Part shown: piece by piece, positions 33,400-41,560 of the stretch | How the letters are laid out: every line of letters starts with the position of its first letter | Position numbering within the stretch: position 1 is the stretch's first letter | Sequence record: PP400786 | From: Escherichia phage FL12 | Strand: one strand, 5' to 3' | DNA: 64,000 nt | Notes under the pieces: generated by a model | Told to the model about the DNA's origin: nothing | Databases searched by the model: none | What the model saw: the letters and a program-made list of their open reading frames with translations, nothing else | Translations under genes and position numbers: made by a program

Positions 33400-34987
<1,588 letters not shown>

Positions 34988-35014
34988 AATAAAATGGGCC
35001 TTGCGGCCCACTCC

Positions 35015-35517
35015 TTAAAAGTATTTTTTAAAACTCATCATAACTTTATCATCAACATCATTATCAATCTGTGCAACAAGGTAAGATGACAGTTCTACTT
35101 CTTGTGGCGCGGATTGAACATTATCAGAATTAAGATATTCACGAATCCAAGGATACGGATGTTTAACCGGAGCATCGGTAATTGGGCATGGAAGACCACA
35201 CTGTTTCATACGAGATACAGTTAAGTAATCAATAAAGCTCCACATGCTATTTGTATTTAATCCAGGAACATCACCATCTTTAAATAAATGAACTGCCCAA
35301 TCTTTTTCTTGGCGGTTAACTTCCATGAAAATATCAACTGCTTCTTGTTCACACTCTTGAGCAATTTTAACCCATTCATCACCATCAGTGCCGGATTGAA
35401 GTTGACGAATAATATATTGAGTGCCTTTAAGATGAAGCTGCTCATCACGAGCAATGAACTTCATAATCTTGGCATTACCTTCCATGATTTCCATGTTCTT
35501 ATGGAAGTTAAAGGTAC
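35015..35517 (-). CDS. nrdB: ribonucleotide reductase small subunit NrdB, exon 2
   Basis: Encodes ...TFNFHKNMEIMEGNAKIMKFIARDEQLHL..., aligning with E. coli R2 ELMEGNAKII; joins exon 1 to give SFACTFNF. Confidence 0.88.
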
Positions 35518-36107
35518 CGTTATGTTCGATTGAGCTCGCTAATTCTCAACCCGTTCTCTTATGAACTGCTACATATTACTATGCAGACCAGACTATATCA
35601 CAATCCCAGAGGGATTCTCCCCATTTCGAGTCGCTTGACCCTACGTCCGAAGACTAGTCGTTGAACCTTGCTTTGCAATTGTCGCCGTGCCATCGTTTAT
35701 ATGTTGATGGTGATAAATCTTTCTTATCACAATATGGACAATTCAATTGAATTCTATTTGGATTTAATTTACATCTGTCATTATGTTTTAGATAAAATCC
35801 AGGACCTTTACCAATGTGCCCGCAGAAATCACATGTGATTTCTTTTTGTGCAGGATGGGTCCCGTTCTTAACCATTTCTAATGTTTTTGCTGATGTTCTT
35901 TTCTTATGGTCCCATCAGAATCTTTAAGTAGGTCCGTCAGCATCTATCCAAATTTTTCTATAGTTCAATTGTGCATCCTCTTAAAAGTATAATCATATTA
36001 TACTAATTAAAGGTGCAAGCAAAACCTTGGCTGCTAGTTTTCCTATAAAGGACTTTCCAGCAATTAAAGGAGTTTTCGATAAACGTTACCGTTTAAAGGC
36101 GCATTTT
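35518..36107 (-). mobile_element. group I self-splicing intron in nrdB (590 nt)
   Basis: Interrupts NrdB after conserved YVSFA; 5' splice site after U (GCGU), 3' end ...GAACAUAACG; core-like GGGUCAAGCGACUCGAAA and GAUAUAGUCUG elements resemble the T4 td intron. Confidence 0.8.
35654..35875 (-). CDS. truncated intron-encoded endonuclease remnant (I-TevIII-like C-terminal Zn-finger fragment)
   Basis: 73-aa ORF inside the nrdB intron with CDFCGH...CPYCDKKD Cys motifs. Confidence 0.5.
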   Translation of the reverse strand: MVKNGTHPAQKEITCDFCGHIGKGPGFYLKHNDRCKLNPNRIQLNCPYCDKKDLSPSTYKRWHGDNCKARFND

Positions 36108-36783
36108 ACGCAAAAGATACATAAAAACGAATAGCTTCTAAGGCATTAATAACGTGCAAACAGAGGTAAAGAGATTTCATTAAAGCACGTTTAGCTTCGG
36201 CTTCTTGTTTAATAGCTCGGTTTAAACGAAAGTCGGCATCAGGAGATTCTTTAGCTAGTTCTACAAATTCTTTAGCATTTTCCCATTCACGGGTTTTAAC
36301 CAAGACATCATCATAATAACGTCCAATGGATTCAGCTCGTTTCATAATAGCTTCATCTAATACAATCTCATCAAATACCTTTGACGGATCAGTATAAAGA
36401 TTTCGCATGATATGAGTATATGAACGACTGTGAATAGTTTCACTAAAAGTCCATGTAGCAACCCATGTATCTAATGAAGGATCTGAAAGCAATGGCATAA
36501 GTACCGCAGATGGTGCACGACCTTGAATGCTATCAAGTAACGATTGATATTTAAGATTATTAGTAAAAATATTTTGTTGATACTGAGGAAGTTTATTAAA
36601 TTGAGTAGCATCCATCATCAAGTTAACTTCTTCAGGACGCCAGAAAAACGAGAGCTGACGTTCAATAAGTTCTTCAAATACCCTATGTCGTTGAATATCA
36701 TAACGTGCAATTCCAAGACCAGACCCAAAAAACATGGGTTCTGTTAAAACATCGACCTGTTTAGTATTAAAAACTGTACTCAT
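36108..36783 (-). CDS. nrdB: ribonucleotide reductase small subunit NrdB, exon 1
   Basis: Encodes MSTVFNTKQ...LEAIRFYVSFA matching class Ia R2 up to the conserved RFYVSFA segment. Confidence 0.88.
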
Positions 36784-38375
36784 TATTTTGTCCTGTAAAC
36801 TAAATTTCCACAGTCCCAGATTCTTCTAAGACCATTTGCATAACAATTTTCTACTTCAGTTATTGTATCATCATAATTTTTAAGCTTGTTTTTAAGCTTA
36901 TGTTTCATATAGCTTGAGCGGTGAAATACCTCTCCTTTATCGACGTACCAATAACACGGCTCAGAGATATGACTAAATTCCATGACAGAGTCATAAACAT
37001 TTGATAATGTACTGCACCATCTTCGATTGCCATAAGATAGACAATTAATTCCTTTTAATAATTTTGAGACTCCTCCTACAACACAAACCCCCAATTTTGA
37101 ACACATCCTTAAAAGTTCATCACCTGAGCTATATCTAGATTTACCGATAGAAATAATTTGAACTAACTCATTATTGTAATAAAGTCCTTTATACGTATGA
37201 GCTCCCGAGCAAAATCCTTGAAGATGATTCTTATTAATAAATTCTTTTGCCTCATCCTTATTAACAAAACGCGCTTTGCATTTTCGGGCTGGTATTCTTT
37301 CTGATAATCCTAATTTATGCTTTATAATGGATTTCCAGATCTCTCTTTTTGTATCATCAATCCATTCATTTTCGAAGATGTGAAGTAATTGAATTCCTTG
37401 TGCTTCACACATCTCTGTCTTCATCAAATGATAAGTTTCTTTAATTTTATCTGTTTCCTTTGACCCGCTAGAATGCCAATAAATTCCATCGTATTCTATA
37501 GCCAATTTTTTCTCAGGAATGTAAATATCTAATTCATACGGAGGAATAATTTTTCTAGTTTCTACGCAATCAAATCCTAGATCTAAAATGAATTGCTCTA
37601 TAGAACTTTGAGTATAATGAACGTCAATTAGTCCTTTGGATGAAAGAGCTCTATAAGCCGTCATCCGAGAACAATTTGCTAATTGTTGTAGTTCTTCTAT
37701 AGAAATTTTGTAATTGATTTTATCTAGTATATCATGATTAATATGACCGTTATTTTTAATAGATTTTCCTATAGATGAATATAACGATGCCTTATATTCT
37801 TCAGTCCAATTTAATTTGGTCTTCTTAGATTTTTCGCGAGATTTTTTAGAATGCAGAATATCAACTGATTTACCGTTTTCTATAACTTTTCTCGCTTCTT
37901 TCACACTTTCTAATTGTGAATTATGCGTTACCCCATATCGTTCAATTAAAGTTTTTCTATTTTTATTTCTTGAAATTTTTTGATGAGTTGTTCCATATTT
38001 TTCTAAAGAATTTTTGTGTTGAAGTTCAGACAAATATTTTTTATATTTTTCTTTTCCACCAAAATTTGTATCACGGCTTTGAGTTCTCTTATCCGCGAAA
38101 AATATCCCTGCGCAGGATTTACTACATGTTGCTGGAAATACACGTTTCTTTGCTGTTTTCAGAGAAATGAAATTTCCACAAACTGCACATTTTAGATCGT
38201 TAATGTCAATGCCTTCCATAATTTGGAACACATTGAGCTTAAAATCTATTCCATCAGTTAGAAGAGCTTTATCTTCTTCTGTTAGTCTAGATTTAAGTTT
38301 TTCTTCTCCAAATGGAAGAAACTTTCCGTTTTTGTATATATTATCAAACATAGCGTTATTCTTAGTTAACCACAT
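36783..38375 (-). CDS. 530-aa multi-domain putative nuclease (Zn ribbon, YG-x-x-H repeats, HTH, Vsr/PD-(D/E)xK-like motif) in the nrdA-nrdB intergenic slot
   Basis: CAVCG...CSKSCAG; KYGTTHQ / RYGVTHNSQ repeats; HTH-like ISIEELQQLANCSRMTAYRAL; YELDIYIPEKKLAIEYDGIYWHS. Confidence 0.7.
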   Translation of the reverse strand: MWLTKNNAMFDNIYKNGKFLPFGEEKLKSRLTEEDKALLTDGIDFKLNVFQIMEGIDINDLKCAVCGNFISLKTAKKRVFPATCSKSCAGIFFADKRTQSRDTNFGGKEKYKKYLSELQHKNSLEKYGTTHQKISRNKNRKTLIERYGVTHNSQLESVKEARKVIENGKSVDILHSKKSREKSKKTKLNWTEEYKASLYSSIGKSIKNNGHINHDILDKINYKISIEELQQLANCSRMTAYRALSSKGLIDVHYTQSSIEQFILDLGFDCVETRKIIPPYELDIYIPEKKLAIEYDGIYWHSSGSKETDKIKETYHLMKTEMCEAQGIQLLHIFENEWIDDTKREIWKSIIKHKLGLSERIPARKCKARFVNKDEAKEFINKNHLQGFCSGAHTYKGLYYNNELVQIISIGKSRYSSGDELLRMCSKLGVCVVGGVSKLLKGINCLSYGNRRWCSTLSNVYDSVMEFSHISEPCYWYVDKGEVFHRSSYMKHKLKNKLKNYDDTITEVENCYANGLRRIWDCGNLVYRTK

Positions 38376-38391
38376 CCTTGTGGTAATTATA

Positions 38392-39381
38392 TCATAATTT
38401 ACAGGATGAACAATCTTCAGCTTTTGGAGTTTCTATTTCATAATCATCAGTACCAGAACCATCACGGGTATTATGATAATAGAAATTTTTAATGCCATAA
38501 TACCATCCGTATAGCATGTCATCAATCATTATTGACATTGGAACCTTTCCTTTTGGAAAAATCTGCGGGTCATAATATGTATTCGCTGAAGCTGATTGAC
38601 ATACCCATTTCAGCATAATAGCTACCTGCGTAAGATAAGGTTTATTACCTTTCTTAGCTAATTTCCATGTATAGTCGTAAAGGTCTATGTTATGCTCAAT
38701 ATTGGGCACGACTTGATTAAAGGAGCCCTCTTTTGATTCTTTAACAGAGACTGGTCCACGTGGAGGCTCGATACCGTTTGTACTGTTAGAAACTTGGGAA
38801 GATGACTCACATGGCATAAGTGCTGATAATGTGCTATTACGGATGCCAAAGAGCTTAAGGTCTTCCCGCAGCGCCGACCAATCACAAACGTATTTTGGAG
38901 CTGCGATTTGGTCAATCTTTTTATTGTACCAGTCGATAGGTAATTCGCCTCGAGACCAACGAGTGTCTGAATAATATTCGCAAGGTCCTTTTTCTTTGGC
39001 GAGCTTAATGGATGCTTTAATGAGTCCATACTGTAATCTCTCAAATAGTTCATGTGTTAAATCGTTAGCATCTTCATAAGAAGCAAAGTTACTTGCCAGC
39101 CAAGCTGCATAGTTGGTAACACCTACACCAAGATTTCGACGCTTTTTAGCTTTTTCTGCTTCAGGAACTGGATATCCTTGGTAATCCAAAAGATTATCAA
39201 GAGCACGAACTTGAACTTCTGCCAATTCATTAATTTTATCTTGGTCTTGCCAGTCAAAATTATCCAGTACGAATGCGCTAAGGGTACAAAGCCCCACTTC
39301 TCCCTTGTTTTCAATAACTTCTATTGTAGTATACTCATCATCTTCGTAAAATTCATCTACAAATTCATAATCAATATTCAT
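38392..39381 (-). CDS. nrdA: ribonucleotide reductase large subunit NrdA, C-terminal piece (329 aa) with novel acidic N-terminal leader
   Basis: After leader MNIDYEFVDEFYEDDEYTTIEVIENK, sequence GEVGLCTLSAF... to C-terminal CSSCKL aligns with E. coli R1 residues ~456-761. Confidence 0.85.
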   Translation of the reverse strand: MNIDYEFVDEFYEDDEYTTIEVIENKGEVGLCTLSAFVLDNFDWQDQDKINELAEVQVRALDNLLDYQGYPVPEAEKAKKRRNLGVGVTNYAAWLASNFASYEDANDLTHELFERLQYGLIKASIKLAKEKGPCEYYSDTRWSRGELPIDWYNKKIDQIAAPKYVCDWSALREDLKLFGIRNSTLSALMPCESSSQVSNSTNGIEPPRGPVSVKESKEGSFNQVVPNIEHNIDLYDYTWKLAKKGNKPYLTQVAIMLKWVCQSASANTYYDPQIFPKGKVPMSIMIDDMLYGWYYGIKNFYYHNTRDGSGTDDYEIETPKAEDCSSCKL

Positions 39382-40081
39382 TTAATTCTTTTACCTTTTT
39401 TCTAGTAATTCCTAAAGCTTTAGATGCTCGATGTATTGATTGATATTCTATACCGTTTATTTTTACAGCAATTAAGTTATGGGGTTTTAATCCCTTTGGA
39501 TGAGGTTTACTGACGAAAACTAAATTATCAAGCTCTGAAATCTTATCCAATTTCTTACACTTAAATCCTTTGTGATGCGACCGTTTACCTTTACAAACGG
39601 CTGACATTGCAGATGGATTTAAATTATGCTCTTTACAAAATTCGTTAAGACCTCGATGAATTTCCTCATGACCATCAGGAAATGTAAACACCCAAGATGT
39701 TTGAAGTCGAGATTTAACTTCTGGAGACATAGGAATACCTTTGTTCCAAGCTGGTTTGCCTTTATTATTTTCAGATACAGAAATAGCCAATTTTCTTCTA
39801 AGCCACCCATGGCGTTTATTGGTGTTCTTTCGTTCAATATTATCTTTAGAATAAACACACATCATATTAGCGGCAAATATCAATTTATGATTATTTGGAT
39901 ATATCTTTACTAATAATTGATGAGCTATGTAATGCTCTTCTGGCGTCAAATCTACCAGGTTTTCCTTTGTATCAGAACCACCAATACACAGAGGTATAAT
40001 ATGGTGTGATTCGGTATAGCAATCTAATTTTCTATTCTTAGCTTTAGAAATAAGGTTATTGTAAATTTTAAAATAATCCAT
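39371..40081 (-). CDS. HNH homing endonuclease (Mob-like) inserted within nrdA
   Basis: 236 aa; HNH motif ESHHIIPLCIGGSDTKENLVDLTPEEHYIAH; NUMOD-like GKPAWNKG motif; stop overlaps NrdA C-piece start. Confidence 0.85.
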   Translation of the reverse strand: MDYFKIYNNLISKAKNRKLDCYTESHHIIPLCIGGSDTKENLVDLTPEEHYIAHQLLVKIYPNNHKLIFAANMMCVYSKDNIERKNTNKRHGWLRRKLAISVSENNKGKPAWNKGIPMSPEVKSRLQTSWVFTFPDGHEEIHRGLNEFCKEHNLNPSAMSAVCKGKRSHHKGFKCKKLDKISELDNLVFVSKPHPKGLKPHNLIAVKINGIEYQSIHRASKALGITRKKVKELNEY

Positions 40082-40126
40082 AACTTTTCCTCTTGTTATG
40101 GATTATTTATTAACGGTCTGTGTACT

Positions 40127-41560
40127 TTATTTGCTTTGAATTATACCGTCAGGATTAGCTTCATAAAACTTAGCTACATCCGACTTCTTAATTTTGATTA
40201 AACGGGTTTGTTGGCTATTCACATCATTTGTTGGAATAGCAATTTCACAACACAAGTTACTCTGACGAATAGGCGCCTTTTCGCGAATAAACGGAGTGTA
40301 GTTATTCGTATTATCAATGAACTGTACATAAATCCTTGCTGTTCCTGAACGTTCAGTCATGAGCAATTCAAATAGTTCACGGGCTTTAATACGCTTTTTA
40401 CGAATATTAGGGTCTTTTTCTGCTGCTTCGTATAATTCACGGAAACGGTCTTGGTCTTTAAAATAAGAATAATAAAGCTCGCCACCCATTTCATGTGGAC
40501 TGAACAAAGTAATGTAATCGTTCTTTCCAAAACGTTCCATCATCAAATCATTCAGCTGAACACCATAATCCATATGACGAATGCGGTTTTCTTCTACGCC
40601 TTTGTTATTTTTCAAAACGAGAAGATTTTCAACTTCCAAATGCCAAATAGGATAATAAGCAGTAGCAGCGCCGCCACGAATTCCACCCTGTGAACATGAT
40701 TTAACTGCAGTCTGAAAATGTTTCCAAAAAGGAATAACACCAGTATGGCGTACTTCACCCATGCCAATCTTAGAACCTTCGGCACGAATCATACCAACGT
40801 TAATACCAATTCCAGCGCGTTTAGAGATATATTCAACAATTGAAGCGGAAGCCTTATTGATAGACTTCAATGAATCTCCTGCCTCAATAACAACACATGA
40901 ACTAAACTGTCGAGTAGGAGTACGACAACCAGCCATAATAGGAGTTGGCAGTGAAATTTGTCGGGTTGATACTGCTTCATAAAAACGAATAACGTGTTTT
41001 AGTCTATCAACAGGTTCATCTTGATGCAGTGCCATTCCAATAGTCATAAATGCAAACTGTGGAGTTTCATAAATTTGACCAGTGGTTTTATCTTTAACTA
41101 GATATTTTTCTTTTAATTGCATCGCCCCGGAATAAGTAAATTCCATATCCCGCTCATGCTTAATTTTTGATTCTAAAAATGTAATTTCTTCTGCTGAATA
41201 TTTTGACAATAATTCAGGGTCGTATTTACCTTCATTTACACAGTAAGAAATATGGTCAATAAATGAACGTGGTTCATACTGCCCATAAACATGCTTACGA
41301 AGAGCGAACATTAGACAACGTGCAGCTACATATTGATAATCAGGCTCTTCAACCGAAATAGAATTCGCAGCGGCCTTAATGACAATAGTCTGAATATCAT
41401 CAGTTGTCATTCCATCACGGAGATAAGATTTAATATTTTCATATAATTCATAAGGATCTACTGATGTTCCTTCAGCTGCCCAAGATAAAACTTTAATAAT
41501 TTTTTGTGGGTCAAAGCTCTGAGAAACACCACTACTTTTGATAACATTAATTAATTGCAT
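40127..41560 (-). CDS. nrdA: ribonucleotide reductase large subunit NrdA, N-terminal piece (477 aa) with 28-aa C-terminal read-through tail
   Basis: Contains active-site SNLCCEIAIPTNDVN (E. coli SNLCLEIALPT...NDVN) then non-homologous tail ending in TAA. Confidence 0.88.
   Translation of the reverse strand: MQLINVIKSSGVSQSFDPQKIIKVLSWAAEGTSVDPYELYENIKSYLRDGMTTDDIQTIVIKAAANSISVEEPDYQYVAARCLMFALRKHVYGQYEPRSFIDHISYCVNEGKYDPELLSKYSAEEITFLESKIKHERDMEFTYSGAMQLKEKYLVKDKTTGQIYETPQFAFMTIGMALHQDEPVDRLKHVIRFYEAVSTRQISLPTPIMAGCRTPTRQFSSCVVIEAGDSLKSINKASASIVEYISKRAGIGINVGMIRAEGSKIGMGEVRHTGVIPFWKHFQTAVKSCSQGGIRGGAATAYYPIWHLEVENLLVLKNNKGVEENRIRHMDYGVQLNDLMMERFGKNDYITLFSPHEMGGELYYSYFKDQDRFRELYEAAEKDPNIRKKRIKARELFELLMTERSGTARIYVQFIDNTNNYTPFIREKAPIRQSNLCCEIAIPTNDVNSQQTRLIKIKKSDVAKFYEANPDGIIQSK

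Follow-up and report, generated by a model that had tools for sequence, protein, structure and literature searches.

The nrdA–nrdB insert of Escherichia phage FL12 is a copy of the homing endonuclease gene hef, coding for a Vsr-like nuclease joined to a Mom-like GNAT-fold domain

The 64-kb stretch of DNA from Escherichia phage FL12 analysed here (record PP400786; termed the window, in whose numbering all positions are given) contains a 530-residue open reading frame (ORF) on the minus strand, flanked on one side by the C-terminal part of nrdA (38392..39381) and on the other by exon 1 of nrdB (36106..36783). We identify this ORF with high confidence as hef, a free-standing homing endonuclease gene originally reported from phage U5, in a functional or recently functional state. 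Homology to T4 ends 2 nt upstream of the hef ATG (38378) and restarts 1 nt downstream of its stop codon (36784), and hef therefore exactly replaces T4 mobE and nrdB.1. A first-pass annotation of the window, made from the sequence alone, had correctly placed the ORF in the nrdA–nrdB slot and named mobE as the T4 occupant, omitting nrdB.1, which lies in the same slot.

The encoded protein is identical to U5 Hef (ABI48935.1, AY262133.2) at 526 of 530 residues in a gap-free alignment, the substitutions from window to U5 being A89S, T98I, S417T and V436A, and the two genes differ at 7 of 1590 nt (99.6% identity). The gene order in the U5 GenBank record is nrdA–hef–nrdB, and the two copies of hef share both this slot and the arrangement of the hef stop with the nrdB start. 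When positions 36000–39500 were compared with phage genomes by megablast, the matches were to T4-like phages of the genus Tequatrovirus and to the 4.2-kb U5 record. The protein matches PHROG 3339 (‘homing endonuclease’) with an E value of 2e-150, and an NCBIfam search with it gave no match. Hef was reportedly first described by Sandegren, Nord and Sjoberg (2005, Nucleic Acids Res 33:6203), who are said to have called its homing ‘most likely’ rather than to have shown it directly, and to have seen U5 Hef cut the DNA of its own phage in vitro as well. The EDxHD (Vsr-like) family of homing endonucleases takes in ‘bacteriophage Hef type homing endonucleases’ (PMC3239194), and a review names nrdB as the cleavage target of U5 hef (PMC2988022). 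With hef named in 2005 and classified in 2011, the window ORF is another copy and not a new type of nuclease. The first-pass annotation had thus recognized the right functional class, a free-standing homing endonuclease; its proposal of a new type is contradicted by the near-identity to U5 Hef in the same slot. It had also set the protein apart from Hef, grouping Hef with HNH enzymes, whereas the ORF is Hef, and Hef is no HNH enzyme but EDxHD/Vsr-like (PMC3239194). Identity and position, like the fold and residue conservation described below, are shown by the present analysis.

The hef ATG at 38375 lies 16 nt further downstream from the nrdA stop codon (38392–38394), and at the other end the hef stop codon overlaps the nrdB ATG in the sequence TAATG (Table 1), with the nrdB Shine–Dalgarno sequence AGGA inside the last hef codons. 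The overlap with the nrdB start and the short gap to nrdA had been noticed at first pass, with the two ends of the gene interchanged: on the minus strand, the start of hef adjoins nrdA and its stop meets nrdB. Scanning of the hef ORF revealed no terminator-like site, MotA box or late-promoter motif, its coding strand holding neither a MotA box nor TATAAATA, and sigma-70-like sites in hef do not rise above those in shuffled sequence. Because hef lacks terminator, MotA and late-promoter motifs and carries the nrdB Shine–Dalgarno sequence within its 3′ end, co-transcription of nrdA, hef and nrdB, as initially proposed, is plausible, and expression of nrdB probably needs read-through from nrdA. 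The mobE/nrdB.1 cassette of T4 resembles hef in being promoter-less and reliant on nrdA transcription; T4, however, has a middle promoter of nrdB downstream of mobE, and no such motif was found in hef.

The true start of hef may be either Met1 (38375) or Met9 (Table 1). The majority of relatives start at MFDNI..., the equivalent of Met9, and residues 1–6 of the predicted structure are of low confidence; the sequence AAGG directly abuts the ATG at 38375. Translation of the annotated U5 protein, 544 residues long, begins 14 codons further upstream, from an ATG whose counterpart in the window is AAG, as nrdA there reads GAA GAT in place of GAT GAT.

The protein consists of an N-terminal region, a Vsr-like nuclease domain and a C-terminal domain with a GNAT fold. 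All five motifs or regions listed in the first-pass annotation are found in the translation: the Cys cluster CAVCG...CSKSCAG (C63, C66, C84 and C88), the repeats KYGTTHQ (residues 125–131) and RYGVTHNSQ (residues 145–153), the helix-turn-helix (HTH)-like segment ISIEELQQLANCSRMTAYRAL (residues 224–244), the nuclease-type motif YELDIYIPEKKLAIEYDGIYWHS (residues 280–302) and a C-terminal region of approximately 175 residues. In an alignment of 88 relatives, to which all conservation counts given here refer, the four Cys residues, E281, D283, E294, H301 and a large number of C-terminal positions are either fully conserved or shared by 90% or more of the sequences, and the motifs are therefore not chance features.

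Residues 1–254 gave no match among solved structures. Zinc-ribbon Pfam families are matched by some relatives, and Pfam DUF7487 by 55 of the 88 (best E value, 2.8e-56); in the 65%-identical relative P0004 the DUF7487 match spans residues 83–150, and the window protein itself has no Pfam DUF7487 match at E values up to 1. Pfam matches of the HTH segment are weak (HTH_11, E = 0.13; UPF0175, E = 0.1). The N terminus is variable among relatives and residues 255–530 are constant, which is the usual modular layout of phage homing endonucleases, with a specificity module joined to a catalytic module.

The fold of residues 255–354 is a Vsr-type variant of the PD-(D/E)xK nucleases (Vsr/DUF559/I-Bth0305I), bearing out the earlier reading of a multi-domain nuclease with a Vsr/DUF559-type signature. 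In Pfam, the window protein matches MTES_1575 (E = 1.7e-4) and DUF559 (E = 0.011), both under the cut-offs of these families. Similarity to I-Bth0305I (PDB 3r3p) is weak with a single sequence (phmmer, E = 0.029) and reaches an E value of 4.9e-4 with the family profile. The putative catalytic residues are E281, D283, E294, D296, H301 and possibly D309, conserved in 85 (E281), 88 (D283), 87 (E294) and 88 (H301) of the 88 relatives. D283 and H301 align with I-Bth0305I D196 and H213, the residues mutated in its crystal (D196A and H213A), and D309, which is one column off I-Bth0305I D222 in the HMMER alignment, is present in 50 relatives, with gaps in 27. The two proteins share the aligned Asp and His and a modular layout in which an N-terminal region, presumed in Hef to bind DNA, is followed by a nuclease. 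I-Bth0305I, however, is intron-encoded, 266 residues long and ends with its nuclease, whereas Hef is free-standing, has a far larger N-terminal region with a zinc ribbon and carries an extra C-terminal domain. Membership of the HNH (Mob-type) and GIY-YIG (Seg-type) families was rejected, in agreement with the first-pass annotation: Pfam gave no match to either at E values up to 1, and the HNH motif was not found.

The C-terminal region, which had been considered unassignable, is assigned here as a GNAT-fold domain that is closest to Mom, a tRNA-dependent DNA-modifying enzyme (PMC13219725). Pfam PF25680 (‘Mom’) is matched by 25 of the 88 relatives (best E value, 1.1e-7), most of them below the gathering score, and the window protein alone gives no Pfam Mom match at E values up to 1. 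Profile–profile comparison of the Hef C-terminal region with 112 bona fide Mom proteins gives an alignment over 128 columns (E = 4e-5, probability 70%); single-sequence comparison with Mu Mom by hhalign is weak (E = 0.037), and the relationship is convincing only with the Mom family profile. Residues important in Mom are H58, Y59, R111, S124, D149, R151 and Y159 (PMC13219725; PMC7261163, in which Mom numbering is lower by 10), and R111 is specific to Mom and not general to GNATs (PMC13219725). In the profile alignment, H58 corresponds to Hef H384 (conserved in 86 of 88 relatives), R111 to R423 (87), R151 to R452 (88) and Y159 to Y461 (85). Mom Y59 falls on L385, at which Tyr is not conserved, and D149 on N450, which is Asn in 63 relatives and Asp in 25. 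S124 falls in an alignment gap beside the VVGG(A)SK sequence, and S437 in helix α3 (85 of 88) is its possible counterpart. A basic helical insertion, KHKLKNKLK... (approximately residues 486–513), precedes the last strands, at the position of the essential HTH-like insertion of Mom. Hef therefore shares with Mu Mom (PDB 8bv8) the counterparts of R111, H58, R151 and Y159 and a helical insertion before the last strand; it differs in having Asn for D149, in the uncertain equivalent of S124 and in that Y59, W48 and W181 are not conserved, and its domain is fused to a nuclease whereas Mu Mom is free-standing.

Conservation of the Mom-like domain equals that of the nuclease, and it is therefore under selection for some function. 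The domain most likely serves dimerisation or helps the protein, at its target, to engage DNA or flip a base; a catalytic part in DNA modification is less likely. If active and tethered to the N-terminal region, the domain could mark adenine at the target of its own nuclease, providing epigenetic self-immunity or coupling cleavage to modification, a proposal that we consider unlikely. Such a mark would be of use because a free-standing homing endonuclease leaves its target undisrupted by its own insertion. We know of no Hef with modification activity. Some Acinetobacter phage records carry the label ‘putative nuclease/acetyltransferase protein’.

Table 1 Coordinates of hef and its encoded domains and motifs in the window
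Feature	Position	Strand	Basis or detail
hef gene	36783..38375	−	530-residue ORF, stop included, ATG start; ORF listing, U5 Hef match and PHROG 3339
Alternative hef start, Met9	38351	−	
TAATG, hef stop (TAA 36785–36783) overlapping nrdB ATG (36783–36781)	36781..36785	−	Direct sequence reading
N-terminal region, residues 1–254; extended, mostly helical array (zinc ribbon, KYG repeats and HTH), presumed DNA-binding	37614..38375	−	
Four-Cys zinc ribbon, C63/C66/C84/C88	38112..38189	−	Each Cys in 81–85 of 88 relatives
Helical KYG repeats, K..T..xKYG(V/T)TH.Q, residues ~100–160; DUF7487-like	37896..38078	−	
Helix-turn-helix-like pair, residues 224–246	37638..37706	−	AF2 helices 226–233 and 237–246
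Vsr-like (EDxHD-type) nuclease, residues 255–354	37314..37613	−	
Mom-like GNAT-fold domain, residues 355–530	36786..37313	−	

The distribution of hef speaks for a mobile element, the insert being present in only 15 of 829 phage records sharing the nrdA and nrdB flanks. Copies of hef at least 95% identical occur in 16 records, and the T4-type mobE/nrdB.1 cassette in approximately 20. T4 MobE occupies the same slot as Hef and has the same target gene, nrdB (PMC2988022), but is an unrelated protein, an HNH nicking enzyme of 141 residues. A 50%-identical relative of Hef lies in the same nrdA–nrdB slot of Acinetobacter phage Acj9 (locus L005, 2501–4102), and Escherichia phage RPN226, a Tequatrovirus, carries a 43%-identical paralogue, annotated as ‘hypothetical protein’, between the capsid vertex and major capsid genes (locus L006, 2288–3799). 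Campylobacter phages have 11–12 Hef-type copies, over 2000 members of the family are found in metagenomes, and many predicted viral structures share its layout. Elsewhere in the window, no second hef-like copy was found. A transposon-like element was rejected, as the insert is not flanked by meaningful repeats, either terminal inverted or direct, of the kind left by a transposon. The nrdB sequence adjoining hef is near-identical between the window and U5 for approximately 120 nt and then becomes mosaic, with 30–63% identity in 30-nt windows. This pattern looks like a co-conversion tract, and the 5′ mosaicism of nrdB seen when the window, U5, Manna and T4 are compared would fit target-site immunity and co-conversion alike.

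Cleavage and homing by the FL12 protein would follow from the literature on the U5 protein and from family analogy. In the proposed mechanism, hef would be transcribed within an nrdA–hef–nrdB message, and the variable N-terminal region of its product, with zinc ribbon, KYG helices and HTH, would bind a specific site near the gene, for which the review names nrdB (PMC2988022). The Vsr-like EDxHD domain would cut the bound site, with D283 binding metal and H301 acting as general base; by analogy with I-Bth0305I, Hef is probably a dimer. When a relative without hef infects the same cell, the break would be mended by T4-type recombination from the hef-carrying genome, and the recipient would thereby gain hef together with adjoining nrdB sequence.

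Several observations weigh against the identification of this gene as a working hef whose role is homing. The allele departs from U5 Hef at A89, T98, S417 and V436, and the last of these, encoded by codon 436 (37068–37070), places Val in the GG(A)SK loop at a position that is Val in only 2 of the 88 relatives and Ala in 69 of them and in U5; V436 is a possible functional difference in a putative cofactor-binding loop. Neither candidate start codon has a well-spaced Shine–Dalgarno sequence. The strong conservation of the Mom-like domain is left unexplained by a plain homing model.

This conservation, on a par with that of the nuclease, is one of the points in favour of a different role, that of a single-chain restriction–modification-like element, in which the Mom-like domain would covalently modify adenines of the phage’s own DNA and the fused nuclease would attack DNA that lacks the modification, from the host or from other phages in the same cell, an activity that could coexist with homing. 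Jumbo-phage proteins in which a Mom domain is fused to a restriction-type nuclease have been published before, a restriction–modification role was proposed for them by Iyer et al., and five ‘momylating enzymes’ were counted in PA5oct (PMC7824862); tblastn with the window protein finds five PA5oct loci annotated ‘Hef-like homing endonuclease’, which are probably the same proteins. The conserved Hef counterparts of the Mom-specific R111 and of H58, R151 and Y159, and the similarity of the VVGG(A)SK loop to a GNAT cofactor-binding motif, point the same way. We nevertheless judge such an element improbable. Genes of the hef type occupy slots typical of homing endonucleases, next to or within essential genes, and reach up to 12 divergent copies per genome with variable N-terminal DNA-binding regions, which is more in keeping with site-specific selfish elements than with genome-wide protection. 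Of the Mom residues, D149 is Asn in the window protein and in 63 of the 88 relatives, neither Y59 nor W181 is conserved, and S124 lacks an aligned counterpart in the profile alignment. U5 Hef, moreover, reportedly cuts the DNA of its own phage as well.

Homing endonuclease genes frequently degenerate after fixation, and the ORF could be an inactive hef in decay that is a mere passenger of the nrd operon. In favour of this, the nearby nrdB intron holds a truncated I-TevIII-like ORF of 73 residues, and Val is rare at the conserved position 436. The hef frame, however, runs uninterrupted over its full length, the protein keeps every conserved residue of the nuclease and almost all of those of the Mom-like domain, and only four amino acid changes separate the protein from that of U5, reported as active in the literature; decay is thus very unlikely. 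We give still less credence to a new nuclease class for phage–phage exclusion or anti-defence outside the known homing endonuclease families, a role raised in the first-pass annotation and for which no specific support was found. Exclusion as an effect is possible, since free-standing homing endonucleases of T-even phages are known to cause marker exclusion as a by-product (PMC2988022), but a new class is at odds with the near-identity to a named and published protein, with family membership by fold and profile, with the PHROG label ‘homing endonuclease’ and with the PADLOC result, which consists only of a weak match to a ‘homing endonuclease’ (HEase) model.

The genes on both sides of hef carry further insertions. 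The nrdA gene is split into parts at 40127..41560 and 38392..39381, both on the minus strand, after the residue equivalent to T4 NrdA 449, between the catalytic Cys of NLCCEI and the active-site Cys that follows it. The interruption comes from a 935-bp insert (39277–40212) with an HNH and NUMOD-like ORF (39371..40081, minus strand, 236 residues), which occurs at 95% identity or more in approximately 18 phage records, for example vB_EcoM_112; Rfam finds no group I intron in this insert. The upstream fragment of nrdA has gained a basic tail of 28 residues and the downstream fragment an acidic head of 26 residues (MNIDYEFVDEFYEDDEY...). The split is similar to that in Aeromonas phage Aeh1, in which nrdA is split by mobE and the tails are needed for assembly (PMC3045599).

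Like its T4 counterpart, the nrdB gene contains a group I intron (35495–36105), matched by Rfam Intron_gpI at 35569–35780 with 29.6 bits (E = 1.8e-4), under the gathering score. Its ORF (35654..35875, minus strand), of 73 residues and with no Pfam match, is presumably a truncated remnant of the I-TevIII type. Exon 1 of nrdB (36106–36783) is mosaic, with 86% identity to T4 as against 96–98% for nrdA, and a hypervariable stretch at approximately codons 170–200 differs among the window, U5 and T4. Downstream of nrdB, an ORF of 144 residues with a GIY-YIG domain (34577..35011, minus strand) is in the position of T4 denA (endonuclease II) rather than of a seg homing endonuclease.

Labels within the Hef family are inconsistent. 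PHROG 559 is named ‘HNH endonuclease’ despite the absence of an HNH motif, and several near-identical GenBank copies, such as that in PP987310.1 (Manna_222), are labelled ‘hypothetical protein’. The identification made here is of use for annotation, as many GenBank records of Hef still read ‘hypothetical’ or ‘HNH endonuclease’. The constant core of the family, a Vsr-like nuclease fused to a conserved Mom-like GNAT domain, has been poorly publicised. What would be new, if true, is Mom activity in the T-even Hef, a protein already studied by experiment, combined with site-specific self-immunity. With the chemistry and structure of Mom now published, activity of the Mom-like domain of Hef, if true, could change the understanding of this endonuclease family.

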